Part shown: in pieces, positions 1,960 to 55,266 of the stretch
How positions within the stretch are numbered: the stretch's first letter is position 1
Layout: each line of letters begins with the position of its first letter
Assembly (NCBI GenBank): GCA_029838195.1
Contig: JALGVJ010000001.1
Span: forward strand, 160,001 to 224,000
Direction of reading: 5' to 3'
DNA from: Promethearchaeota archaeon
Lineage (GTDB): Archaea > Asgardarchaeota > Lokiarchaeia > Sigyniarchaeales > SOKP01
Length of the DNA stretch: 64,000 nucleotides
The notes under the pieces: model-generated
Told to the model about the DNA's origin: nothing
The model's input: only the letters and a program-made list of their open reading frames with translations
The model's database searches: none
Translations under genes and position numbers: made by a program

Positions 1960-4900
1960 ATGAAAATTAAGAGAAACATTCGGCTAAAATACGAATTAAA
2001 TGGCAATATCTTTTCTCAACGTGGAGATATTGATTTTGGTGGAGATATTCAAAGAGTTAGAAAGTTTGTGGAGAAGATTAATCAAAAAAAAGAATTAATC
2101 AAAATTCCTGAACCTGCACTTCGTACCGGGTTGATTAATGGAGTCGATATAATTTTTGAGGTTTATAATTATTTATTAAAGATATATAAAAAAGAAATCA
2201 ATCAGGAAAATTTAAATGAAGAATTACACGAATATTTAAGAGAAGAGATGGGCGATGAGGATTTAGAGAAGATACTGATTTCATATTTAGAAGAATTTCC
2301 TCCTCCCGCAATTTTCAATAATGAATTAACCCCCAAGGAGTATTTAGAAAAGGAAATAGGAAACCGTAAAAATGAGGTTCTTCTTTTGGAGGATCTCATC
2401 ATTCTCTGGATTGGAAACGAAAATCCTTCTTTTACTCAATATCTAGAATTTTTTGATGATGAGATTTTAGAAAAGACTACAAATTATTCCATTTTTTTAG
2501 AGAAAACAATTACTTTTTTTGAAAATAAGCCTCCTTTCGGTCCAAAAAATGAATCCATAATAGAAATGTTACAGGAGCCTTCAAGAGAACATCCGAACTC
2601 GATAAAAGATCAATTAGAGTATATTTTAAAAAATTGGAGTCATTTAATTGGGGATCTTTATTATAAAATTCTCTTGGCCTTGGATTTAATCAACGAGGAG
2701 GAAAGATTAAGAGGGTTAGGGGCAGGAGAATCCAAGGTTTATGTATATGATCTGTCCGAGGAGGAGCATTATACTCCTGATAAAGATTGGATGCCCAAAG
2801 TCGTAATGATTGCAAAAAATGTATATGTTTGGTTGGATCAACTTTCTAAAAAATATGGACGTAACATTACAAAACTCCATGAAATTCCTGATGAAGAATT
2901 AGATATCTTAAGTAATCGAGGATTCACGGCTTTATGGCTCATTGGCGTTTGGGATAGAAGTCAAGCTTCTAAGACCATAAAACGATGGTGCGGAAATCCC
3001 GAAGCAGAAGCCAGTGCGTATTCCATTTATGATTACGTGATATCACCTGATTTAGGTGGTCCGGATTCTTTTTATAATTTAAAGGAAAGAGCATGGAGGC
3101 GAGGAATTAGATTAGCATGTGATATGGTCCCCAATCACATGGGAATCGTTTCAAAATGGACAATTGAACATCCTGATTGGTTTATTTCATTACCTTATCC
3201 CCCCTTTCCTTCGTATAGTTATACAGGAGCTAATTTATCCGGGCACCCGAATATAGGAATCTATTTGGAAGATAAATATTATACCCGAACAGATGCCGCC
3301 GTAACCTTCAAACATGTTGAATTTAATACGGGTATCACGCGCTATATTTATCATGGAAATGATGGAACGCACCTTCCATGGAATGATACGGCTCAATTAA
3401 ATTATCTTCTTCCTGAGGTTAGAGAAGCTGTCATTCAAAAAATAATAGAAATTTCGCGAATTTTTCCCATTATTCGATTTGACGCCGCAATGACTTTAAC
3501 CAAAAAACATTATCAACGACTTTGGTTTCCCGAACCAGGTACTGGTGGCGCAATTCCTTCCAGAGCAGAACATGGTCTCACGAAGGAAGAATTTGATAAA
3601 GCCATGCCAAATGAATTTTGGAGAGAAGTTGTCGATCGCATTAATATAGAAAATCCGGACACTCTTCTTTTAGCAGAAGCTTTTTGGTTATTGGAAGGAT
3701 ATTTTGTTAGAACTCTTGGCATGCATCGTGTATATAATTCAGCTTTCATGAACATGTTACGAGATGAAGATAATGCTAAATATAGGCAAGTATTAAAAAA
3801 TACCTTGGAGTTTGATCCTCAAATTTTAAAACGTTTTGTCAATTTCATGAATAATCCCGATGAAGAGACCGCAATAAAGCAATTTGGAACGGGAGATAAG
3901 TATTTTGGCACGTGTACTTTACTGGTTACCATGCCGGGATTACCCTTGTTTGGACATGGACAAATTGAAGGTTTTAAAGAAAAGTATGGAATGGAGTATA
4001 GACGAGCGTATTGGAACGAAGAAATTGATTGGGATCTTGTCAAGCATCATGAAGATACCATTTTTCCATTAATGAAAAAACGATATTTATTCGCAGACGT
4101 AGAACATTTTGTTTTATATGATTTTTGGGAAGGAGATCATGTGAACGAGGATGTATTTGCTTATTCAAATCGATACGGAAATGAAAAAGCTCTCGTAATT
4201 TATCACAATAAATTCGCTGAAACAAGAGGGTATATAAAAAATTCTGTTGCATTTAAAGGAACAAAAGAGAGTGAAACACTCACGCAAACCACGCTTGCAG
4301 AAGCATTAGATCTTCCAAAAGATAATTATTGCATTTTTAAAGATTTTAAAACTGGACTTGAATACATTAGAAAGAACGCAGATTTACATGAAAAAGGATT
4401 ATATATAGAACTTTTCGCTTATAAAGTATATGTTTTTATGGAATTTCAGGTGGTTCGTGATAATGAATTTTTTCATTATGCTAAATTACATGAATTTTTA
4501 GGCGGAAGAGGAGTTCCAAACATCCAAGAGGCTTTACAACAAATCATTTATCAACCATTACACAATGCTTTATCGGAGTTGTTAAATAAGAACATGTATG
4601 AAAAAATATTAAACATGAGGATGATTGATTCTAATGCTTTAGAAGAAATTGCCGCAAAATTACATTCCTTCTTCCAATTGGTTAAAAAATATACGAATCG
4701 CCACGTTATTGATGATTCAATAATAGTGGAAGAAATATTGACAAAAATTAAAATCATTAAGTCCATGGAACTTCTCATTTCTGAAATTTCGATTCCTCAA
4801 GATTTAAAAAGATTCCTAATTGATTTACCTCCTCAAGATGAGTTCGAAAATGCTATCTTGCTCACTTGGAATTTCATTCATCTTATTGGTAAACTTAATT

Positions 4901-5587: not shown

Positions 5588-6739
5588 TTAAATGGTCATA
5601 CCTAAATCAAGTGATTTATCTCTTATTTGAATATTATCAGAAATCTTACAATTTGGGCCTACAACGGCTCTTTCTAACAGGACATTGTCTCCGATTTCAC
5701 AATTATTACATATTACGGTTTCCTTGATTATACATCCTTCTCCAATCTTCACGTTATCCCAAATCACGCTTTTCTCTACAATGGTATCTTGGCCAATACT
5801 AACATGATTCCCTATACTACATAATTCTTTTATTTTTACTCTATTTGCTAATTCCACGTATTCTCCAAAACAAGTCGTTCGTTCTATGATGACATCTTGC
5901 CCCGAATTTATAATTCCTGTAACAAAGATTCCATCGTACTCCGTCCCTTTAGGCGTAATGGGCCAAGCATATTTTCTCAAAAGGTCCCAATTCGCCCATA
6001 AATAAGTTTGAGCATTCCCACAATCTAACCAATAATAATCCTTAACAAATCCGAATAAATTATAATTATTTTCTAGTAAATATGGAAACACTTCTCCCCC
6101 AAAATCCATTAAACGTGTCTCATGTAAAATATCTCCCATCTTTTTATTAAAAGCATAAATCCCTGTATTTATAACATTAGTATGGAGAAATAAATCCGTT
6201 CTTTGTGCCATCGTACTTAAATATAACTCCATAGGTGCGGGTTTCTCCAAAAATAAATATATTCTACGATCACCATCTAAAAGCACGACACCATACTGAG
6301 ATATATGGGTATCCACCGTTTTCATCGATATCGTAGCTATACCGCCTTTCTTGAGGTGAAACTGCATGAATTCCTTCATGGGTAGATTCGTGACAATATC
6401 AGCCATCGAAACTATAATATTTTCAGAATCAAAGTGATCAGTGAGAAGCCTATAAGCATCAGCCGTTCCCTTGCTATCATTGATAATGCATTCTAATTCA
6501 ACATCCCCTAACCGTTCTTGAGTCCACGTTTTCTTAATATATTCTTCTAATTTTTTCCCCATGAAGGCTAACGCTACAATAATGTGTTTTATCCCAGCAT
6601 AGGTTAAATGAGCAATGGAAAAATCTATCATTGGGACATTTGCGACCTTGATTAGAGGTTTTGGAATTTCAGATGTTATTGGCATGAGCCTAGTTCCTTT
6701 TCCTCCAGCTAAGATCATGGCACTCCAATCTCTGGACAC
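5588..6739 (-). CDS. NDP-sugar pyrophosphorylase (mannose-1-P guanylyltransferase/GCD1-like) with C-terminal left-handed beta-helix
   Basis: LAGGKGTRLMPIT..PKPL, FLEKP, NTGIY, YWLDCGN; hexapeptide repeats; GTG start preceded by GGAGG. Confidence 0.9.
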   Translation of the reverse strand: MSRDWSAMILAGGKGTRLMPITSEIPKPLIKVANVPMIDFSIAHLTYAGIKHIIVALAFMGKKLEEYIKKTWTQERLGDVELECIINDSKGTADAYRLLTDHFDSENIIVSMADIVTNLPMKEFMQFHLKKGGIATISMKTVDTHISQYGVVLLDGDRRIYLFLEKPAPMELYLSTMAQRTDLFLHTNVINTGIYAFNKKMGDILHETRLMDFGGEVFPYLLENNYNLFGFVKDYYWLDCGNAQTYLWANWDLLRKYAWPITPKGTEYDGIFVTGIINSGQDVIIERTTCFGEYVELANRVKIKELCSIGNHVSIGQDTIVEKSVIWDNVKIGEGCIIKETVICNNCEIGDNVLLERAVVGPNCKISDNIQIRDKSLDLGMTI

Positions 6740-7075
6740 TTAGAAAACACCCTCCAAGATTAAAAACTATTAACTATTGTCTTGTAAAAAGATGTTATTT
6801 AAAGGATTAAAGGTTTGTGACCCTAAAATATTTTTTTTTAAAAATTACAACATAAAATGGATTAGTAAAAAATTTTCCTTTTGTTTACTAATATAAATTT
6901 GGCTTTATAATTTTAACGCTCGTTTAATGAATTTTAAGAATTCATTAAATGCTCTATTCTTTTAAATGATATATCCATTATCTATGATTCTCACGTTATT
7001 TAAATTAAGATTAAGGCCCTTTTATTAATGATAATTGCGTTCAAGCAATAACATGTCTTAAATTGCATGTAAAAT

Positions 7076-8365
7076 TTAAGAAAGGGCATGTTTTTTTTCT
7101 AAATCTTTTAAGGTTTCTCTAATTTTCCTTGCAGTTTGATGAGGAAGCATGCGGGCAACTCTCATGTCATCTGCTAATTCAGCACCTCCGATGATTTCAT
7201 GAGGGATTAAATCACCAAAAAGATGAAAATTAGCATCATAACCGAAAGGACAATTATTAAATAAGATATTCCGGTTAGGGTCAATATTTAGAGAGTCTAA
7301 TGCGATAGAGATTTTTTTTAATCCCTCTGCTAAATCTTTAAACTGATTAATATTTAATTGAGAAAATCTTCTCACGTGTTCTTTTGGATGAAATCGTATG
7401 TGATAATTTCTTACGGGGCTTCCTGTTGTATACCATATCCAATAGGGCGTTTTCATTATAATGCGATCACTATTTCCGTGAGTAGTTGTACAAAGTTGGC
7501 AATGATCTCCCATTTCTTTAAAAGCTTCCAAATATCCTTCCAAGCGGCTTCCATGACCGTCCATGTTTAAATCTATATAAATTTGTCCGTGGATTCTGGG
7601 TTGGCTCCCTCCTGCTTTTGTCCCGATATTAAAGAAAGGAGAAACAGGAATATCATAAAAATCTCGCTCAATTGCTTCTTGCACGCAATGGAGTATGGTT
7701 GCTTTCATGGATAAAAATATACCGGTCAATACATCCACGGGAATTAAATGAAAACAGCGAGAGGGATAAAAATGCCTTGAAATGGTAAGTAAATTAATAC
7801 CCCGGGCTAATTTGAGATGGGGTGGTAATTGTTTTTTGATTCGAATCTCTAAATCTTCATCAATGATTCTACACATGGCGGGATATCTATTTATTAAGGT
7901 GAGAGCTTTAACAGATTCATCAATTCTTACTGCCTTACGAGGCATTGCAGTGAAGGCATTATCTATTATCTTTTCATCTTCTGCAATCACCACGGTATAT
8001 CCATCTCCTAGAGGATTTCCTCTCTCATCTTTAATGATCTTTCCTTCTGTAATGGTCATGAAAATGTCTTTAATGCTTATTATGGTATCTTCCGAGCAAC
8101 GGATTTTTTCAATTTTCTTCTCAATATTTTCAATATTTTTAGGGCGTTTAGCACGAACGGGACTTAGATAAGCATAATGACCATAAAACCTTTTTTTTTC
8201 TTTTCTAAGCCCGAACTCTTTAGAATGGATGGTGACCGTGCTTAATGGGTCCCATCTTTTTATGGGAATATCATAGATATCTTTAAAATTATATTTTTTG
8301 ATTATGCCCCATTCCATAAATTTTATTTTTTTAGGATCAAGTCGTTCCATGATTTTTTCCCTCAA
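7076..8365 (-). CDS. GalT-branch HIT nucleotidyltransferase/NDP-sugar phosphorylase
   Basis: RWDPL, RAKRP, NRYPA, FFNIGTKAGGSQPRIHGQ (GalT HxHxQ-like), CQLC, GGAEL. Confidence 0.75.
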   Translation of the reverse strand: MREKIMERLDPKKIKFMEWGIIKKYNFKDIYDIPIKRWDPLSTVTIHSKEFGLRKEKKRFYGHYAYLSPVRAKRPKNIENIEKKIEKIRCSEDTIISIKDIFMTITEGKIIKDERGNPLGDGYTVVIAEDEKIIDNAFTAMPRKAVRIDESVKALTLINRYPAMCRIIDEDLEIRIKKQLPPHLKLARGINLLTISRHFYPSRCFHLIPVDVLTGIFLSMKATILHCVQEAIERDFYDIPVSPFFNIGTKAGGSQPRIHGQIYIDLNMDGHGSRLEGYLEAFKEMGDHCQLCTTTHGNSDRIIMKTPYWIWYTTGSPVRNYHIRFHPKEHVRRFSQLNINQFKDLAEGLKKISIALDSLNIDPNRNILFNNCPFGYDANFHLFGDLIPHEIIGGAELADDMRVARMLPHQTARKIRETLKDLEKKHALS

Positions 8366-21624: not shown

Positions 21625-22647
21625 TTACGATTCATGTTGGTTTTTTCGAGCAAATTCGCGAACATAGCGAATGAACGTGTCAATGTTAAAATTTGTCTTG
21701 ACTGAGGTGAAAAGAAATTTCCATTCTCTATTTTCGATAGCATCAAATTCAAATGTTTCAAACAATCGTGTTTTCAATTGAGAAAGATGATGCTCATCTG
21801 GAGCGTCCTTGGACATGTTGTTAATTAAATCTACTTTATTAGCTAAAATAATTAAAGGGACTCCATATAATTCATATCGATTTAAAATTTTCCAGAACGC
21901 TTGTTTTGATTCCTCAAATCTATTAGGATTCGCAGCATCAATCATGAAGGTGATAATGTTCGAATCTTGTATTCCCAATAACCATTTTTTTCGAAAATTT
22001 TGTTGTCCAGGCATGTCCCATAGAGCCAATAGTCGATTATCATCTTGAACATATTCAATATTAAATTTTCTAGTGGGCGTAAAAAAATTATCATCATATT
22101 CCCCTGTCTTGATCCTTCTTACAAGAGATGTCTTTCCAGCAGCATCAATGCCGAATAAAAATAGTTTAATTGTATTTGTTTTAGTCATCAGCTCTATTTT
22201 TGGATATTTTTCAACGACCTCATCTCCATATCTCCTCAGATCAATAAATAAAGTGATTAAAAAGTTTTCGATATTTATTTCTTCTTCAAAAGGGCTAAAA
22301 CTTTCAGAATTTAAGTACTCATTTAATAATTCCAAAAAATATTCTCTATAATCAAAGGGATTATCATGCTGTTCAAAAATTAAACCAACATGAATTTTTT
22401 GATTAATGCTCATGGAAAAAATGTTGAGTCCCTTGAGGACTTGAGCTTTTGGTTCAGAAATAGTATATTTTAAATGATTATTGTTTTTTATTATTTGGAC
22501 ATTTGTTTCTAATCCTTGCCCGAGAAAAAAATTCTTAATAAGTTGTTTATCGTTGAGGAAAGGAAAGTTTTCTGGATAACTATAAATGTTTAGCTCATCT
22601 AGCTCATTGATGTCATTTCCTATAAAACAAAATATATACTGTATCAA
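21625..22647 (-). CDS. Arf-like small GTPase with N-terminal uDENN/longin-like domain
   Basis: GIDAAGKTS, PT, WDMPGQ..FRKKW, NKVD, TSVKT; N-terminal IYSYPENF...HVGLIFE. Confidence 0.8.
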   Translation of the reverse strand: MIQYIFCFIGNDINELDELNIYSYPENFPFLNDKQLIKNFFLGQGLETNVQIIKNNNHLKYTISEPKAQVLKGLNIFSMSINQKIHVGLIFEQHDNPFDYREYFLELLNEYLNSESFSPFEEEINIENFLITLFIDLRRYGDEVVEKYPKIELMTKTNTIKLFLFGIDAAGKTSLVRRIKTGEYDDNFFTPTRKFNIEYVQDDNRLLALWDMPGQQNFRKKWLLGIQDSNIITFMIDAANPNRFEESKQAFWKILNRYELYGVPLIILANKVDLINNMSKDAPDEHHLSQLKTRLFETFEFDAIENREWKFLFTSVKTNFNIDTFIRYVREFARKNQHES

Positions 22648-47452: not shown

Positions 47453-48205
47453 ATGAAAATTCATTCCTTATTCATCTTGGATGCCGGAGGCTGTTGCTTT
47501 TATAGCAGGAATTTTACGAATGATTTTAATTTAAATGTTAATTTAATCACGCCGTTTTTTTCCGCCATCATTACCTTTGCAGAAAATGTCATTGCAAGAA
47601 AAATGGAAATTCTGGAAATGGGAGACTTGCGATTTGTATTTAAAAAAAGAAACAAGTTCATTTTTGCAATATTGGCGGATTCTACCGTTAGTATTCTTTT
47701 CATCCACTCGCGATTAGACCGGGTCATGAATGTTTTTTTTGATTTATATTATAAGCCGGAGTACCTTGATTCTTGTAGAGAAATCGAAGATCCGGAACTC
47801 GACAAGATGATTGATTCAATAATCAAGGGAGAAGAAGAAATTCTCAAAAATAAAGAATTTTATCAAAAAGTAATTGATTTATTTAAGGAGCAAATTTCCA
47901 AGAATGAGATAATTGGGGCGTGTTTATTAACCACAAAGGGAAATATCATCTACTCCTCCCTACCAAATCAAATATTGCTTGATTCCCTACATGAATTGGA
48001 AATTCGATTCATGACGGGAGTGGAATCTCTGCCAGAGTTATTCTATCAATTAGAAAATGGACAAAAAGTGTTTTCAAAAATCATTCATGTTGATAAGGAA
48101 GATATCGATTTTTTAATCGTACTTTTATTTGAAACATCCGTCCCTCTCGGAATGGCAGAATTGAACCTCATGAAGGTGGGAAAAATGATAAAAAATCTCG
48201 TCTAA
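47453..48205 (+). CDS. Longin + roadblock two-domain protein
   Basis: IHSLFILDAGGCCFYSRNF...LITPFFSAIITFAE (longin); IIGACLLTTKGNIIYSSLP...PLGMA (roadblock). Confidence 0.75.
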   Translation: MKIHSLFILDAGGCCFYSRNFTNDFNLNVNLITPFFSAIITFAENVIARKMEILEMGDLRFVFKKRNKFIFAILADSTVSILFIHSRLDRVMNVFFDLYYKPEYLDSCREIEDPELDKMIDSIIKGEEEILKNKEFYQKVIDLFKEQISKNEIIGACLLTTKGNIIYSSLPNQILLDSLHELEIRFMTGVESLPELFYQLENGQKVFSKIIHVDKEDIDFLIVLLFETSVPLGMAELNLMKVGKMIKNLV

Positions 48206-49843: not shown

Positions 49844-50341
49844 ATGTTCTCACAAAAAGCAATTTTATGTAAGTTGGGGGGATACGTGAATGCTAATCCC
49901 GAGATCGTTAGTTCCTTTCCACCATTAGAAGAATCGGAAAAAGATTATCAGGAATTATTACAAAAATGTTTTCCAATAGGGTCAAAACCAGGGACCTTTG
50001 CCATTAATAAATATAAAAAGGATAATTTACTTTCTTTCATTTTTAAAATCAAGAAAGAAGATGGAAGGGATGATTTATTATCTTTTTCTATCCTGATTGA
50101 CAAAAAACTCGAGGCGGAATATTATAAACCCATAGTCGAAGAAATTATTACCTCATTAAATAATGCCGGTATTTTAAACGAAGATACTCTAATTAAATAT
50201 CACCAAGAAATATATGAATCCATCAATCAAGAAAAAGATTTAAAAATAGAATCCCTCTCCATCCCCTTATCAAAACTTTTTAAAACTATCAACGCGAAAA
50301 TTAAAAAAGAAAAACCACAGCTCAAGGGGAGTTTTTTTTAA
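49844..50341 (+). CDS. Stand-alone uDENN/longin-like protein
   Basis: PEIVSSFPP...ELLQKCFPIG resembles uDENN P-x-I-x3-FP...CFP-x-G; GRDDLLSFSILI. Confidence 0.6.
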   Translation: MFSQKAILCKLGGYVNANPEIVSSFPPLEESEKDYQELLQKCFPIGSKPGTFAINKYKKDNLLSFIFKIKKEDGRDDLLSFSILIDKKLEAEYYKPIVEEIITSLNNAGILNEDTLIKYHQEIYESINQEKDLKIESLSIPLSKLFKTINAKIKKEKPQLKGSFF

Positions 50342-50995
50342 ATGGAAACTGAAGCATTATATATTGCGTTCAAAACGATAGCTAATATTTCTTCGATAAT
50401 TGTTGTACCTATCATGACGAGCATTATTGGACGAAGGTTATGGAACGAATATAAGAATTTTAAAAAAATTAATGTTATAAGGTTGTTAACCTTTTGTATT
50501 TTTCTCTCGTTCTCATGGACCAATCTCTGGGAATTTTTATATGAAACCAGTCCTCTCGCACCGCTATTACCTAGTTATGTTAATTCTCCTAATGCTGTTC
50601 AAGATATCACGTTATATTCCATAGGAATAGGATTCATGGTTACTTTTGCTCTAACATTAACCATTTATGCAAACAAGTTGGAAGCATTTTATCTCGCTCC
50701 GCTTTCCTTTTATCTAGGGATCTTGATATATTATATAGCAACCGGCAATGTGAATTTTCATGCATATTATGTTTACGGTTGTGCAATAGTTGGTTTAATC
50801 TTTTTTTATGTAACGGGATTTCGCCTAAAAGATGATGGGCCTTTAGGTTTAGGAATTCTTTTTACCATTACCTATATTTCTTTAATTTTTTCTGATACAT
50901 TAATCGGAGAGATTTTCTTTTTAGCCTCATTAATATTTGGAGCGTTTTTTAGTTTAGGTTATTTTAATGTTTTTAAAAGCGTGGAGGAAAATTAA
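50342..50995 (+). CDS. 7-TM membrane protein, paralog A
   Basis: Seven hydrophobic segments by eye; ATG directly follows upstream TAA. Confidence 0.75.
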   Translation: METEALYIAFKTIANISSIIVVPIMTSIIGRRLWNEYKNFKKINVIRLLTFCIFLSFSWTNLWEFLYETSPLAPLLPSYVNSPNAVQDITLYSIGIGFMVTFALTLTIYANKLEAFYLAPLSFYLGILIYYIATGNVNFHAYYVYGCAIVGLIFFYVTGFRLKDDGPLGLGILFTITYISLIFSDTLIGEIFFLASLIFGAFFSLGYFNVFKSVEEN

Positions 50996-50996
50996 A

Positions 50997-51656
50997 ATGA
51001 TTCTCATTATAATAATGGCAATATTCAATGTCATGTTTATAGGAATTATTTCAATAATTATTTTCAATGAAATCAAAAAATGGAAAAGCATTCACAATCA
51101 AATTCTCTTATTTATAATTTGTTATTTAATTATTGTTATCGTTCACGCAGTCTGGCAAACATTTTATGAAATTTTCAATTTTCAAGAAATCTTTAAATTA
51201 ATTGACAATTTAACTGTTTTTAATTTCTTTTATTTGCTTTTACTCTTGTTCGCCACAGAAATTGTCTTATATATAAACGGTTGGAAAATGTTATATTCAA
51301 TTCCTCTTATCGCGTGCTTTTTTATCGCTTATGGCATGATCATGAATGAAAGTGTGATTGTAATAGATTATTATTTAGGAATAGTGGTGAGTAATGCGAT
51401 AATTTTGGTTTTAATCTACGAGGGCTATAAAAATGAAAGTGGAACAGTATTTAGCACCGGTATTTTCATGTTCCTTTTTGGACTGGGATTTTATCCCAAT
51501 TTTCTCTTTCCCGGTATATTAATTAAATTTTTAGGAAGCATGGTATTATTATTCGGATCTTTTGGCCTTTTTGAGCGAATGATTTTTATTGACGAAGAAA
51601 GAGAGCAAAAGATAAAGAACACGTGGATTGCGAAAATTGTAGACTTAAAGGAATAA
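50997..51656 (+). CDS. 7-TM membrane protein, paralog B
   Basis: Seven hydrophobic segments; ATG 50997 one base after upstream stop, with GGAGG at 50983-50987. Confidence 0.75.
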   Translation: MILIIIMAIFNVMFIGIISIIIFNEIKKWKSIHNQILLFIICYLIIVIVHAVWQTFYEIFNFQEIFKLIDNLTVFNFFYLLLLLFATEIVLYINGWKMLYSIPLIACFFIAYGMIMNESVIVIDYYLGIVVSNAIILVLIYEGYKNESGTVFSTGIFMFLFGLGFYPNFLFPGILIKFLGSMVLLFGSFGLFERMIFIDEEREQKIKNTWIAKIVDLKE

Positions 51657-51869
51657 AAATTTCAATATTTAAATCGTTTGTTAAGTTAAGTTAAGCATAT
51701 CAATTCTATTTTTTATTATGATTCAGTTTTAAATTCTAATAAAAGGTTTTTCTAATTATATAGCTTTTTTCTCGAAAACAAAATGGTATTAATCTTTACA
51801 CGTGAGGATAGAACAAAAATTCCTCAACTTGTTAATATATTTATCTCTTTAGTCTTTATATTTTTTAAC

Positions 51870-51894
51870 AAGATCTAATCTTCGATTAGATCTT
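51870..51894. promoter_or_regulatory. Inverted repeat AAGATCTAATC-ttc-GATTAGATCTT upstream of Arf-like gene
   Basis: Perfect 11-bp arms, each containing GATC; ends 27 bp before ATG 51922. Confidence 0.4.
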
Positions 51895-51921
51895 TTTTAA
51901 ACACTCTCCTATAGGATTATT

Positions 51922-52818
51922 ATGGGGATAAAGGATATTGTAAAGCGCATTTTTGCCAAGAATAAAAAAGTAGTTATATGTGGACTCGATAATGCTGGAA
52001 AATCAACCTTAGTTTCGTTTTTACAAAATGGAACCTTTATAGAGCATGCGCCTACTCTAGGAAAAGAGCAGACGACCCTAGAAGTTCAAGGTGTTCGCAT
52101 GGATCTTATAGATTTAGGAGGCCAAAAAGATTTTCGCTCACTTTGGCTTGGAGAGATGAAAGATGCTGAATGTGTTTTGTTCATGATTGATGCCCATGAT
52201 GTAGAACGTTTTAAGGAGGCAAAGACGGAATTGTGGAAATTATCATCGATATTTGAAACAAAACCTTTGATAATACTGGCAAATAAATATGACCTTGAAC
52301 CTGTCGCAACGGTAAAGGAGATCATCAATGCCTTAGAACTGGATAAGATATCTTCTTTTCAAATCCTGCCTATTTCTTGTAAAACAGGATATGGAATTGT
52401 TAATGCATTTTCAAAAATTTATTATAAATTAACGGGAAAGCAGTTATCCAAAAAAGTTAGTCCAATGGCTTTGACCGTTTTCGATAAAGGCGGGGTTCCT
52501 TTAACCTCCACCTCTAAAGATGATATTTTAAAAGGCGGGTTATTTGCTGCTCTTACCACGTTTGTAAAAGAGTCTTTTAATTCCGAATTAAATCAGCTTA
52601 AGATTGGAGAGCACGTGATTCTTGTGAAGCGTTCCAAGCATTTAATGGGCTCAATCATTTTGAAAGAGGGAGATCATATTGATATTAAGGAAGCGGAAGT
52701 AGGTTTAAATGAATTATTAAGCCATCTAGAACACATGTGTCCGGAGCTTGAGGAGCAAAAATTAGACACGAGTAAGATTGAATATTTAGTGAAACAATAT
52801 TCGACGAATTTATTATAA
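51922..52818 (+). CDS. Arf-like small GTPase with N-terminal MG amphipathic helix and C-terminal longin domain
   Basis: MGIKDIVKRIFAK, GLDNAGKST, PTLG, DLGGQ..FRSLW, NKYD, SCKTG; C-terminal VFDKGGVPL...GGLFAALTTFVKE. Confidence 0.88.
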   Translation: MGIKDIVKRIFAKNKKVVICGLDNAGKSTLVSFLQNGTFIEHAPTLGKEQTTLEVQGVRMDLIDLGGQKDFRSLWLGEMKDAECVLFMIDAHDVERFKEAKTELWKLSSIFETKPLIILANKYDLEPVATVKEIINALELDKISSFQILPISCKTGYGIVNAFSKIYYKLTGKQLSKKVSPMALTVFDKGGVPLTSTSKDDILKGGLFAALTTFVKESFNSELNQLKIGEHVILVKRSKHLMGSIILKEGDHIDIKEAEVGLNELLSHLEHMCPELEEQKLDTSKIEYLVKQYSTNLL

Positions 52819-52869: not shown

Positions 52870-55266
52870 TTATTCGTGTTCCTTAAGTTTAAAATAAAGT
52901 TGACGATTTATTTTTAAGAATTCAAGTAAATTGATGGCACTTGCTCTTTCATAAAATTTACGTGCCTCATCGATATTTCCTTGGAGTTCATGGATCAGTC
53001 CAAGGGAAGTTAAAGCGTTCAAGTGGTGGGATTTTAAATTAATTACTTTTTCTAAATTTTCAATGGCTTTATTGAAGAGATCTTTAAATAGATAAGCCTG
53101 CGCAAGGTAATAATAGGCATCAGGGAAGGTATCATCAATTTTTATTAATTCGAGTGCTTGATTAATTACTTTCTCGAGGTCATCTTTCTTTAATAATTCT
53201 TGAATTGAGATGACTAAGTAATTTTTTAGTTCATCTTTAATTTTTAAAATCAAATTCTCTTTTAATTTTTCATTCTTGCTTATATTACTAAAAAACAAGG
53301 CCTTATTTAAGATGGCAAAAATCTCATCCCAATTTTTAGTATCATGTAATTTTTGAGATAGAAGAAAAATAGAATGTATTAATTCCTCAAGGAGATTATC
53401 TTTCTCTGCTTTATTCTCCATTTCCTCGATAATTTCATGAGATTTTTCGAGCAATTTTGATAAATTATCAATTTGATTAGCAGCAAGCATTATATTAAAA
53501 AGGTTCAAGAGATTTTTAAAAATATTCTTCAATACTTGTTCCTTATTCTCCTTGAGTTCAAAAGTTTGACTAATAGACAGGGCACGATCAATATTTTCGA
53601 GTGCTTTTTCATGAATTCCTTTCTTGAAATCTTGATTAAAATGTTCTAAAAGCATGTTTATTTTAGAGCCATGAATATCATCAATCAGATTTTTGATTTC
53701 TAGTAATTCTTGCGCTTTTAATTCAGGATCAGTGATATTTTCAGCAGAAGCTAATCTTTTCTTTAATTCTTCATGTTGTTCTGAGAATTCCTTTTCTATT
53801 AATAAATCCTCGCCTTTTGCTATAGTTTCTTTTAATTCCACGCGTTTCATTAATTTATTGATATTATCTATTTCCTCATCCATTTCTTTTGATAGATACA
53901 TTTTATTAGTAATACTGAGCGCATCTTTTAGAATTTTTTTTGCTTCGTTAAAAGATCCCTCGTTTGCTTTATTTCTTGCATTATCCATCAATTCATGTAT
54001 CTGAATGGAATAAATTTCATTAATGAATCGTTTAAGCTCTTGAATGGGTTGATTTTCATCTTCGGCACATGCTAAGTTCTTAGCGATGCTTAAAGCAGAA
54101 TATATCATTCCAATGGCTTCTTCGTATTTCCTTTCTTTTACGAGATGTTTGGCGGTTTCTTTTCGAGCATGAATTCCTTTCGTGCAAGTTTTTTCTAACA
54201 ATTCACTAATCTTGGCTACTTCTTGTTCCTTTTGTTTTGAATTTATCAGTGAATCTGCTATAGTTAAGGCTTTTTTAAGGAGGCTCATGGCATCAGTAAT
54301 TAGTTTTGTAGATTGTTCAAAATTTTCTTCCTGAATTAAAGCTATTGCTTGTTCAAATAAAGAATTTACTTCCTCTTTTAGGTAAGGATCTAAAATTGAG
54401 CTTAATTGCTCAACATGCTGGATTTTTTGGTCGGTTTCTTCCATGGTTTCAATGATTTCCCTTGCTTGCGTGAAAAAAGGGAGAGCATTTTCAAGATTCC
54501 CTTGTTTTAATAAGGATTCTCCTTCCTTAATTAGCGGTTCTACTTTAATTCCATGAATTTCATTTATTTTTTCTTTTAAATTTAAAGTTAAAGGTTCTAA
54601 AATTTCAGAATAAGGAGATTTTTTTAAAAAATTAAGCTTGTCGTGAAGCATGTTTAAAGATTTTTCTAATTCTTTTTGACCAATTAACGCATTTATCTCT
54701 ATTAAGCATTGGTCTACAAGGGAATGATATACTTGTTCCGTTATTTTTTGAATTTGCTCTTCCATCTTACTCTTGGTACTTGAAGAGGGTGCTTCGATTA
54801 CTTGTTTTTGCGCTTTTTTTAATTCACGCATGGCCTCTTCAATGTTATCTTGCTCCATGTATGCCGCAATGGATTCAATAGTATTATTAAACTCATTGAT
54901 CATGAGTATATTTTTAACATGAGCGGTGAGATTTCCTCTAATTTCAAGATTATCAATTTTTTCTGACACGCTCAAGGCTTCTTCTAAAAGTTTTTTAGCG
55001 TCTGCTGATTTTCTCTCCTCCATTAGTTCCTTAGCCTTTAAAATAATGGAATTTATCTTATCCGAATGAATGTTAGTTATTGCATTCTCTATTTTCTCTA
55101 ATTGCTCGTTAACCAGTTCTTCATCTTTAAAACCCGAAGAGATTAATTCCTTTGCTTCTTCGAATTTCAGAATTGCTGAATCAAAATCTTCTCGTGTCTT
55201 GAATTCATTAGCTTCTTTCATTAGTCCTTCGATTTTCTTTAAGAGAGAAGATCTTTTTTTAATCAT
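52870..55266 (-). CDS. Large alpha-solenoid protein with C-terminal TPRs
   Basis: Recurrent ~55-60 aa helical units; canonical TPRs AYYYLAQAY...AIENLEKVI, ALTSLGLIHE. Confidence 0.85.
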   Translation of the reverse strand: MIKKRSSLLKKIEGLMKEANEFKTREDFDSAILKFEEAKELISSGFKDEELVNEQLEKIENAITNIHSDKINSIILKAKELMEERKSADAKKLLEEALSVSEKIDNLEIRGNLTAHVKNILMINEFNNTIESIAAYMEQDNIEEAMRELKKAQKQVIEAPSSSTKSKMEEQIQKITEQVYHSLVDQCLIEINALIGQKELEKSLNMLHDKLNFLKKSPYSEILEPLTLNLKEKINEIHGIKVEPLIKEGESLLKQGNLENALPFFTQAREIIETMEETDQKIQHVEQLSSILDPYLKEEVNSLFEQAIALIQEENFEQSTKLITDAMSLLKKALTIADSLINSKQKEQEVAKISELLEKTCTKGIHARKETAKHLVKERKYEEAIGMIYSALSIAKNLACAEDENQPIQELKRFINEIYSIQIHELMDNARNKANEGSFNEAKKILKDALSITNKMYLSKEMDEEIDNINKLMKRVELKETIAKGEDLLIEKEFSEQHEELKKRLASAENITDPELKAQELLEIKNLIDDIHGSKINMLLEHFNQDFKKGIHEKALENIDRALSISQTFELKENKEQVLKNIFKNLLNLFNIMLAANQIDNLSKLLEKSHEIIEEMENKAEKDNLLEELIHSIFLLSQKLHDTKNWDEIFAILNKALFFSNISKNEKLKENLILKIKDELKNYLVISIQELLKKDDLEKVINQALELIKIDDTFPDAYYYLAQAYLFKDLFNKAIENLEKVINLKSHHLNALTSLGLIHELQGNIDEARKFYERASAINLLEFLKINRQLYFKLKEHE

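Follow-up and report, generated by a model that had tools for sequence, protein, structure and literature searches.

The window analysed here is a stretch of 64,000 nucleotides from a Promethearchaeota archaeon of the class Lokiarchaeia (contig JALGVJ010000001.1, positions 160,001 to 224,000 of the forward strand). It contains four neighbouring genes on the same strand, which we describe as a cassette: a gene for a small soluble longin protein (P1), genes for two membrane proteins with about seven transmembrane (TM) helices each (7TM proteins TMA and TMB), and a gene for a GTPase that we assign to the Arf family and that carries a fused C-terminal domain (Table 1). An earlier annotation of the same DNA (the original prediction) had placed the four genes at these positions, and the coordinates of the open reading frames (ORFs) agree with it. 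The sequence also bears out what it said of the gene junctions: the TAA stop codon of P1 (50339-50341) directly abuts the ATG of TMA (50342), a single base separates the TAA of TMA (50993-50995) from the ATG of TMB (50997), and a spacer of 265 bp precedes the GTPase gene. The length of TMB is counted from the ATG at 50997, as a longer ORF from 50967 would overlap TMA.

Table 1 Genes and features of the cassette (positions in the window; aa, amino acids; GAP, GTPase-activating protein; GPCR, G-protein-coupled receptor)
Feature	Position	Strand	Length	Description
P1	49844-50341	+	165 aa	Soluble longin protein, NPRL2-like; predicted GAP subunit
TMA	50342-50995	+	217 aa	Seven-helix membrane protein; GPCR-like predicted fold
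TMB	50997-51656	+	219 aa	Paralogue of TMA by profile comparison; conserved cytoplasmic C-terminal tail with invariant W210
AT-rich spacer	51657-51921		265 bp	22 % GC; directly 5' of the GTPase gene
GTPase gene	51922-52818	+	298 aa	
Arf-family GTPase domain	51922-52446	+	aa 1-175	Gly2 and basic amphipathic N-terminus
GTPase C-terminal domain	52447-52818	+	~123 aa	Putative roadblock/longin superfamily domain, fused to the GTPase

Linkage and duplication of the cassette

Homologues of TMA were found in 15 of 41 relatives, and tblastn of the neighbourhoods placed each of them beside P1, TMB and the Arf gene where the contig allowed this to be seen. When species-representative genomes were scanned with the GTPase as query, 37 loci were obtained, and the full set was present at every locus with a full-length orthologue and enough flanking sequence. 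Conservation of the gene order across Lokiarchaeia had been proposed as a check, and it was found in two forms: of 32 non-redundant complete cassettes, 26 have the order P1-TMA-TMB-Arf and six the order Arf-P1-TMA-TMB. The linkage holds across three families of the class. Copies of the cassette may follow one another in tandem, be oriented divergently or lie on one contig with 13 kb between them. In the two genomes whose copies are well separated, each of the four proteins of a copy was nearest to its counterpart in the same cassette of the other genome. The mean identity was 72 % for the GTPase, 53 % for P1, 44 % for TMA and 40 % for TMB. That the genes remain linked in both orders, in cassettes duplicated in tandem or divergently and in three families of the class supports the view, already taken in the original prediction, that the four genes form a functional unit.

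The same linkage could in principle result from descent or co-regulation, the genes being neighbours whose products do not interact directly. In the family of the window the flanking genes (TrmB, thioredoxin, a 250-aa longin-like protein, FAD oxidoreductase and amidohydrolase) are also kept, so that some of the synteny there is plain relatedness. However, the four genes stay together where the flanks have changed and the order is permuted, the block has been copied as a whole, and sets of P1, Arf and 7TM genes recur many times per genome in other classes. Linkage of this passive kind therefore seems to us hardly credible as the whole explanation.

The original prediction had allowed that the GTPase gene may be transcribed separately. 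The AT-rich spacers of the family of the window fit this suggestion, those orthologous to 51657-51921 being 124-278 bp long with 15-26 % GC, and here a separate promoter of the GTPase gene is probably contained in the 265-bp spacer. In the other two families, and in the order Arf-P1-TMA-TMB, the four genes are packed with gaps of at most ~63 bp. At 51870-51894, ~27 nt 5' of the GTPase start, there is a perfect hairpin (stem of 11 bp, loop of 3 nt) with a T run after it. No matching hairpin occurs in the orthologous spacers of the relatives, and because it is not conserved it was not counted as an element of the cassette.

Loci L018 (G015:C373) and L019 (G008:C45) each contain two complete cassettes next to one another, arranged in tandem in one genome and divergently in the other; the copies share 20-48 % identity in P1, TMA and TMB and ~70 % in the GTPase. 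In a genome of the same genus (L016, G001:C9:59000-72000, at about 6290-7450) the match to TMA runs over two frames with internal stops and the P1 frame is cut to 128 aa, beside an intact GTPase with 81 % identity. It may be that part of the cassette is decaying here, or that the assembly is in error.

A three-gene form in other Asgard archaea

When a profile of P1 was searched across the phylum, 46 of 301 genomes contained homologues. Among them were genomes from four families that do not belong to the class, and a genome could have as many as nine copies. The E-values, between 1e-10 and 1e-22, indicate one P1 family shared across classes, and the homologues from outside the class were labelled Heimdallarchaeota or Heimdallarchaeaceae. 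Nine of 16 contexts outside the class contained P1, an Arf-like GTPase and a protein of about seven helices in this order, with the genes abutting or overlapping, and in four of the 16 P1 was followed by one or two multi-helix proteins. In this three-gene cassette (loci L061-L072) the Arf-like GTPase is ~175-205 aa long and has no tail, and the 7TM protein has 270-320 aa.

In a tree of GTPase domains, which included paralogues sampled from the 42 Arf matches of the source genome, the Arf proteins of the Lokiarchaeial cassettes formed a clade with a support of 0.999 and those of the three-gene cassettes one with 0.995; the two clades were joined as sisters at 0.81. The clade of cassette Arf proteins leaves out the other Arf-like paralogues sampled from the source genome. 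The distant cassette 7TM proteins could be tied to TMB only indirectly, with hhalign probabilities of 78 % and 96 % via an intermediate group. The two forms thus have in common the P1 family, an Arf protein from sister clades and an adjacent seven-helix protein. They differ in that the Lokiarchaeial form has two short paralogous 7TM proteins (~215 aa) instead of a single longer one, a roadblock-like domain fused to the GTPase, another gene order and, in one family, the long spacer before the GTPase gene.

The Arf GTPase and its tail

The GTPase domain matched the Pfam family Arf (PF00025) over residues 6-167 with an E-value of 5.3e-34 and 117.6 bits (cut-off 22.3), and it is the best Arf match of the source genome. 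The G motifs are intact, with the P-loop GLDNAGKST, the switch II motif DLGGQ including the catalytic Gln, and NKYD. At the N-terminus, Gly2 is followed by a basic/hydrophobic amphipathic stretch; it is known that in eukaryotic Arf the N-terminal amphipathic helix binds the membrane and Gly2 is lipidated. The nearest solved relatives were 8oun and 8oum ('GTP-binding protein') and then 8oul and 8ouk ('Arf GTPase'), after which eukaryotic Arf, Arl and Sar1 structures ranked. The Gtr1_RagA profile gave 19.6 bits, below its cut-off of 22 (E 6.6e-4), and Arf scored far higher. The switch I-II region had a sub-threshold match to Pfam G-alpha (E 1e-6, 28.5 bits compared to a cut-off of 48.8). Judged by its sequence, the GTPase is a true member of the Arf family.

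The tail of the GTPase (residues 176-298) is more difficult to place. Its profile found LAMTOR3 in the PDB with a weak E-value of 0.07, Pfam gave MAPKK1_Int in four and Fuz_longin_1 in three of 19 members, and a low-score lead in the Atlas pointed to a cluster named 'Roadblock/LAMTOR2' (0.84). On these weak matches we place the tail in the roadblock/longin superfamily, with a slight leaning to the LAMTOR3-type roadblock. The original prediction had described an Arf-longin fusion; the Arf part stands, while the longin label of the tail can be kept only at the level of the roadblock/longin superfamily. By analogy, a GTPase with a roadblock-type tail can be called Rag-like in its overall architecture, which is also the architecture described for MK-D1 proteins (PMC10933270).

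In one relative (G013, L022:5016-5525, minus strand) the gene after TMB encodes the roadblock-like tail only, a protein of 169 aa with no GTPase domain. Stand-alone versions of the tail with 135 aa also occur in other metagenome-assembled genomes, away from any cassette (L106, L107, L109). The second-best Arf match of the genome lies in the window at 21724-22191 on the minus strand (107 bits), inside an ORF of 348 aa, and falls outside the cassette clade in the tree.

P1, a longin protein resembling NPRL2

AlphaFold2 models were made for P1 and TMA. The model of P1 (pLDDT 91, pTM 0.85) has the element order strand-strand-helix-strand-strand-strand-helix, followed by further C-terminal helices. 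Its best matches were the NPRL2 chains of GATOR1, with a Foldseek E-value of 2.3e-6 and a TMq of 0.67. With VIA-align the model could be placed on NPRL2 at Z 14.6 and a root mean square deviation (rmsd) of 4.2, with 156 of its 165 residues aligned (residues 1-165 of the model on 5-173 of the chain), and on yeast Npr2 at Z 13.0-13.3. Other longins gave Z 10.6 (a Lokiarchaeal longin), 9.7 (DENND10), 9.1 (DENND1B), ~9 (AP sigma) and 8.5 (FLCN), and no SMCR8 or C9orf72 chain was among the structural matches listed by Foldseek and VIA-align. The link to NPRL2 is structural only: sequence profiles of P1 found nothing in the PDB, and for P1 of the window there was no Pfam match at E up to 1. The name 'uDENN-like' given to this protein in the original prediction is therefore right as far as the longin fold is concerned, but the uDENN assignment does not hold, considering the Z of 14.6 for NPRL2 compared to 9.1 for DENND1B and the lack of a Pfam uDENN match. 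Membership in a DENN module was also rejected, as 165 aa leave no room for DENN and dDENN domains.

Among 32 homologues of P1, R75 is conserved in 31, P44 in all 32, and G46 and P26 in 30 each. The turn before strand 2 has the form [G/N]-[P/L]-E, with G (16/32) or N (13/32) at position 18, P (19/32) or L (11/32) at position 19 and E (24/32) at position 20; in P1 of the window N-P-E stands directly before strand 2. R75 is located in the loop between strands 4 and 5. In human NPRL2 the catalytic arginine is Arg78 and in yeast Npr2 it is Arg84 (PMC9646525), and R75 corresponds to approximately position 79 of the human and 83 of the yeast protein when counted from the starts of the aligned ranges (chain residues 5 and 9). 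A GP motif at the strand-2 turn together with an arginine finger has been described as the mark of GAP longins and of a class of Asgard longins (PMC12290439), and the conserved x-P before strand 2 of P1 sits where that study locates the GP motif. In outline, the modelled P1 would fit this class. Because P1 is closest to NPRL2 and has a near-invariant arginine at about the place of the NPRL2 arginine finger, the model makes a role as a GAP more likely than the role of guanine nucleotide exchange factor (GEF) which the name uDENN implied.

Most longin regulators of small GTPases are nevertheless GEFs or platforms, and P1 could be one of these, like the longins of DENN proteins, Mon1-Ccz1 and TRAPP, with the 7TM pair merely as its membrane anchor. 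DENND1A/B, Fuzzy-Inturned, Lst4 and AP sigma are among its fold matches (Z 7.5-9.7), and two of the 32 family members had a faint Pfam match to uDENN (E 0.087). However, NPRL2 and Npr2 exceed all GEF longins by 3 to 5 Z units and match the whole protein, P1 has no DENN or dDENN domain, and the near-invariant arginine and the x-P turn are reported to be specific to GAP longins (PMC12290439). We consider this alternative unlikely, but worth keeping in mind.

The tails of P1 end in conserved aromatic motifs, GSFF or, in distant homologues, DLW. No fused (longer) forms of P1 were found, which is weak evidence.

The membrane proteins TMA and TMB

Hydropathy showed about seven hydrophobic segments in both TMA and TMB, and the AlphaFold2 model of TMA, built on 73 homologues (pLDDT 95.5, pTM 0.89), has seven helices, in agreement with the number predicted originally. 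As single sequences TMA and TMB are weakly similar (BLASTP E 0.03); their family profiles align with an hhalign probability of 97.3 % and an E-value of 1.8e-11 over 136 columns, from TM2 to TM6. By this comparison TMA and TMB are paralogues, as had been suspected, and the sequence patterns proposed to be shared by them are broadly real. The aligned positions include Y-x-N at the cytoplasmic end of TM3 (Y109 in TMA, Y92 in TMB), P120/P103, a basic G...K(D/N)xG loop between TM5 and TM6, and G-x-F past TM7. In the alignment of TMB, Y92, P103, G149 and W210 are invariant, the tryptophan being located in the basic C-terminal tail.

The charge distribution suggests an N-out/C-in topology, as basic residues cluster in both proteins at the C-terminal end and in the loops that follow TM1, TM3 and TM5. 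In TMA the information content is highest in the cytoplasmic loop between TM5 and TM6 (K-D-N-G-x-L-G, 2.50 bits), followed by TM6 (2.06), the C-terminal G-x-F...F-K (1.97), TM4 (1.96) and the TM3-TM4 loop with Y109 (1.86), and it is lowest in the outer loops (1.0-1.4 bits). With the TM5-TM6 loop most and the outer loops least conserved, and with W210 in the tail of TMB, the conserved surface of the two proteins faces the cytoplasm.

The TMA family appears to be small and lineage-restricted, as only 101 clusters matched in a HMMER search of 1.84 billion representatives. A word-indexed protein search with TMA found only TMA itself, and the relatives emerged in the genome searches and the full HMMER search. 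No consistent Pfam family was found across 73 members of the TMA family (E up to 1), and Pfam and NCBIfam gave nothing for P1, TMA or TMB of the window.

In one family of the order, TMB is extended at its C-terminus by ~100 aa containing the pattern CPxC...C-x-H, an addition that has the look of a zinc-ribbon-like element on the cytoplasmic side (L024:1084-2067, L027:1782-2855, L029:5388-6350 and L030:2270-3232).

A structural comparison of the 7TM model had been proposed, and its outcome was a GPCR-like fold. When the TMA model was compared by VIA-align with 48,161 representative solved chains, the best 50 were all chains of GPCR fold. The highest of those listed was the 7TM domain of ADGRL3 (Z 16.2, rmsd 3.2, 185 of 217 residues); CD97 (Z 13.1) and a de novo 'GPCR-like fold' (Z 12.7) were further matches, and receptors of the classes B1, C, T, F and A filled the remaining places, down to Z 10.1 at rank 50. 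A second VIA-align comparison, within the top 1000 of Foldseek, gave the same picture, with the GPCR domain of LYCHOS/GPR155 (8u5n) at Z 11.6 and an rmsd of 4.4 over 195 aa.

Several points speak against reading these matches as those of a receptor. Helical bundles reach high Z values by their arrangement alone, with the caution level of the tool at Z ~13, and only the top match (Z 16.2) clears it. The Foldseek E-values for TMA were weak (4.5e-3 and above, TM-score 0.41-0.56), its identity to GPCRs in the structural alignments was 5-15 %, and the 7TM proteins have no DRY or NPxxY-type motif. No Pfam 7tm family was found for the proteins of the window or among the 25 families listed for 73 TMA-family members (E up to 1). 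Because of the weak E-values and the low identity we claim a GPCR-like fold for the TMA model, and not membership in the GPCRs.

Other seven-helix families were considered and rejected. HisKA_7TM (PF16927) was not among the Pfam families listed for 73 TMA-family members or 18 distant cassette 7TM proteins at E up to 1, the sole trace being an Atlas feature lead (0.95) from one distant cassette 7TM protein to a cluster of that name. With respect to microbial rhodopsins, helix 7 of TMA (residues 187-204) has no lysine, the basic position in helix 7 of TMB is K, R or Q, and none was found among the best 50 structural matches of TMA, a list that does not exclude families outside it.

Transporters and channels bear on the function of the pair, as TMA and TMB might be an effector, i.e. 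a channel, a transporter or a lipid-handling protein that is controlled or placed by the GTPase, and not a sensor. Small GTPases with membrane effectors are common, and in eukaryotes the membrane transporters SLC38A9 and PQLC2 are known to work with Rag or Arf regulators. The same applies to the transporter half of LYCHOS (PMC11525196), and in TMA the conservation reaches into TM4 and TM6. However, neither VIA-align list contained a transporter or channel fold in its best 50, and there was no consistent Pfam transporter family, so that candidates of this kind were rejected and an effector role seems quite improbable.

The GPCR-like fold also raises the question of whether the 7TM pair senses a ligand and catalyses the release of GDP on Arf, as a GPCR does on G-alpha, with P1 as an off-switch resembling the regulators of G-protein signalling. 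Class B2 receptors are on top of the structural matches, and the most conserved parts of TMA, the TM5-TM6 loop and the ends of TM3 and TM7, are the regions by which GPCRs couple to G proteins; the sub-threshold G-alpha match of switch I-II and the conserved aromatic ends of the P1 tails would also agree. However, the pair is unrelated by sequence to every GPCR class, both proteins, at 217-219 aa, are minimal with short or variable outer loops, and no conserved outward-facing pocket residues were seen in the conservation profile of TMA. Furthermore, Arf has neither the helical domain nor the C-terminal helix which GPCRs grip in G-alpha. Taken literally, such a receptor acting as exchange factor is possible by analogy, and in our view rather unlikely.

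Neighbouring genes

A soluble protein of 250 aa with a weak match to Fuz_longin_1 (E 0.007) is encoded at 47453-48205 (plus strand), 1.6 kb upstream of the cassette. It is kept in the family of the window alongside the TrmB-type regulator, thioredoxin and FAD oxidoreductase, but in the other two families this protein was not seen adjoining the cassette. A helical protein of 798 aa with tetratricopeptide repeats at its end is encoded at 52870-55266 (minus strand), in convergent orientation to the GTPase gene, and is conserved at the same position only in one neighbouring genus (loci L020 and L021).

About 16 kb past the window (G000:C1, ~240.1-242.9 kb; L077:4670-6928 on the minus and 4143-4673 on the plus strand) two adjacent proteins are encoded; in both, the N-terminal half is multi-helix and the C-terminal half soluble. 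No sequence similarity could be detected between them and TMA, TMB or the distant 7TM proteins of the three-gene cassettes, and they were rejected as a copy of the cassette. They look like a second case in this genome, independent of the cassette, in which a 7TM pair is associated with a small GTPase.

Discussion

It seems on balance probable, although far from certain, that the four genes encode one membrane-associated small-GTPase switch, with P1 as its off-switch and the 7TM pair as its membrane partner. We infer the physical contacts, the GAP activity, the heteromer and any sensing in this scheme. The Arf-family GTPase, with Gly2, the amphipathic N-terminus and the catalytic Gln in DLGGQ, would be the switch itself, and its roadblock-like tail would serve as a platform for docking or dimerisation. 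P1 would serve as the GAP that inactivates the switch, with Arg75 contributed by the strand 4-5 loop beside the [G/N]-P-E turn. TMA and TMB would form a heteromer in the membrane, and their cytoplasmic face (the TM5-TM6 loop, the ends of TM3 and TM7 and the tail of TMB) would bind the soluble partners. The pair may localise the switch, or gate it on something sensed in or across the membrane. It is also possible that the tail of the GTPase acts as a second longin subunit for P1. The original prediction, which envisaged a heterodimeric 7TM sensor coupled through longin-longin pairing to a membrane-binding GTPase, is as a whole partly supported.

A number of observations weigh against the proposed switch. 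Known longin GAPs are heterodimers of two longins, and the cassette contains no second P1-like longin gene. A profile comparison of the GTPase tail with P1 showed no similarity, so the longin-longin pairing is without sequence support, and one relative carries the tail-only protein in place of the Arf fusion. P1 of the window has N-P and not G-P at the strand-2 turn, and many distant homologues have G-L. The equivalence of R75 to the NPRL2 finger rests on range offsets, within about one residue, and not on a residue-level superposition. In addition, the cassette is accessory: of 151 genomes in the class, 45 gave a match to TMA, and those in which none was found include several that are 98-100 % complete.

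Among known systems, the closest in logic would be GATOR1 (NPRL2-NPRL3-DEPDC5) acting on the Rag GTPases RagA/B, with LYCHOS as a partner of class-B2-like GPCR fold. Both systems have an NPRL2-shaped longin with an arginine in the matching loop, a GTPase with a C-terminal roadblock-type domain (a putative one in the cassette) and a 7TM protein of class-B2-like GPCR fold. The TM5-TM6 loop (third intracellular loop, ICL3) of LYCHOS is the proposed GATOR1-binding element (PMC11525196), and the corresponding loop is the most conserved segment of TMA. However, P1 corresponds only to the first part of NPRL2, of ~170 residues, the cassette has no counterpart of NPRL3 or DEPDC5, and its GTPase is Arf by sequence and not Rag. 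Unlike LYCHOS/GPR155, TMA and TMB have no transporter or DEP domain and share no sequence similarity with it, and no target of rapamycin (TOR) pathway is implied.

In C9orf72-SMCR8-WDR41, a longin GAP for Arf is recruited to lysosomes by the 7TM transporter PQLC2. This system, the GAP motifs of which are given in PMC12290439, has in common with the cassette a longin-domain GAP, as predicted for P1, an Arf-family substrate and a seven-helix protein, there in a recruiting role. PQLC2, however, has the PQ-loop fold and TMA a GPCR-like one, and P1 is closer to NPRL2 than to FLCN (Z 8.5).

With GPCR-G protein signalling the cassette shares the seven helices, their packing as in the adhesion receptors of class B2 and the probable N-out/C-in topology, and the paired paralogues TMA and TMB resemble the arrangement in the class C heterodimers GABA-B or TAS1R. 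G-alpha is thought to derive from the family to which the cassette GTPase belongs. In contrast to GPCR signalling, the cassette has no membership in a GPCR class by sequence, no G-alpha helical domain, no beta-gamma subunits and no extracellular domain. That the cassette is a surviving relative of the system behind eukaryotic receptor-GTPase signalling, in which a GPCR-fold heteromer sensing a ligand or a lipid works directly on Arf as its exchange factor or gate and an NPRL2-type longin is the GAP, appears distinctly unlikely; if true, the pairing of GPCR with G-alpha, or that of LYCHOS-GATOR1 with Rag, would predate eukaryotes.

Ras-superfamily GTPases together with roadblock or longin regulators are also found in the actinobacterial conservon (CvnA-D), in MglA-MglB and in an Asgard operon with LAMTOR1-like, Rab-like and DENN proteins. 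The conservon, like the cassette, adds a membrane sensor, but one resembling histidine kinases. The GTPases of these three systems are MglA- or Rab-like, and the systems have no Arf, no NPRL2-like longin and no 7TM protein of GPCR fold. The LAMTOR1-like/Rab-like/DENN operon, an ESCRT neighbourhood and abundant NPRL2-like longins were described by Liu et al. (2020 preprint, bioRxiv 10.1101/2020.10.19.343400).

The archaeal GTPases ArfR (bioRxiv 10.1101/2024.02.28.582541) and AArf (PMC11914678) belong to the same family as the cassette Arf. Fusions of GTPases with roadblock or longin domains have been described in MK-D1, in which the GTPase genes are generally not in operons with roadblock or longin genes (PMC10933270). 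A text search of the ArfR preprint, PMC11914678 and PMC10933270 gave no operon, neighbour or transmembrane partner. We found no paper that links Asgard Arf GTPases by gene context to 7TM proteins or NPRL2-like longins, and none on the four-gene or the three-gene form. A preprint of October 2026 (10.64898/2026.10.28.762692) reports structural clusters that Asgard archaea have in common with eukaryotes, including GPCR-like and 7TM proteins, and the accessible part of it draws no link from these clusters to GTPases.

Asgard archaea contain many Arf-, Rag- and Rab-like GTPases and many longin and roadblock proteins. The genes for the GTPases and their regulators rarely share operons, so that regulators cannot be matched to GTPases (PMC10933270), and the question has been raised which GTPases are the partners of the GAP-like Asgard longins (PMC12290439). 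The cassette offers a matched set, consisting of an Arf GTPase, a longin resembling NPRL2 in which one arginine is a candidate finger, and two paired 7TM proteins of GPCR-like fold. It names candidate native partners for archaeal Arf switches, GPCR-style signalling being an analogy here. With four small proteins it can be tested whether longin GAPs for GTPases of the Arf and Rag type predated eukaryotes, whether archaeal Arf switches act at membranes via dedicated seven-helix partners, and whether a connection between GPCR-fold proteins and small GTPases already existed before the rise of eukaryotes.

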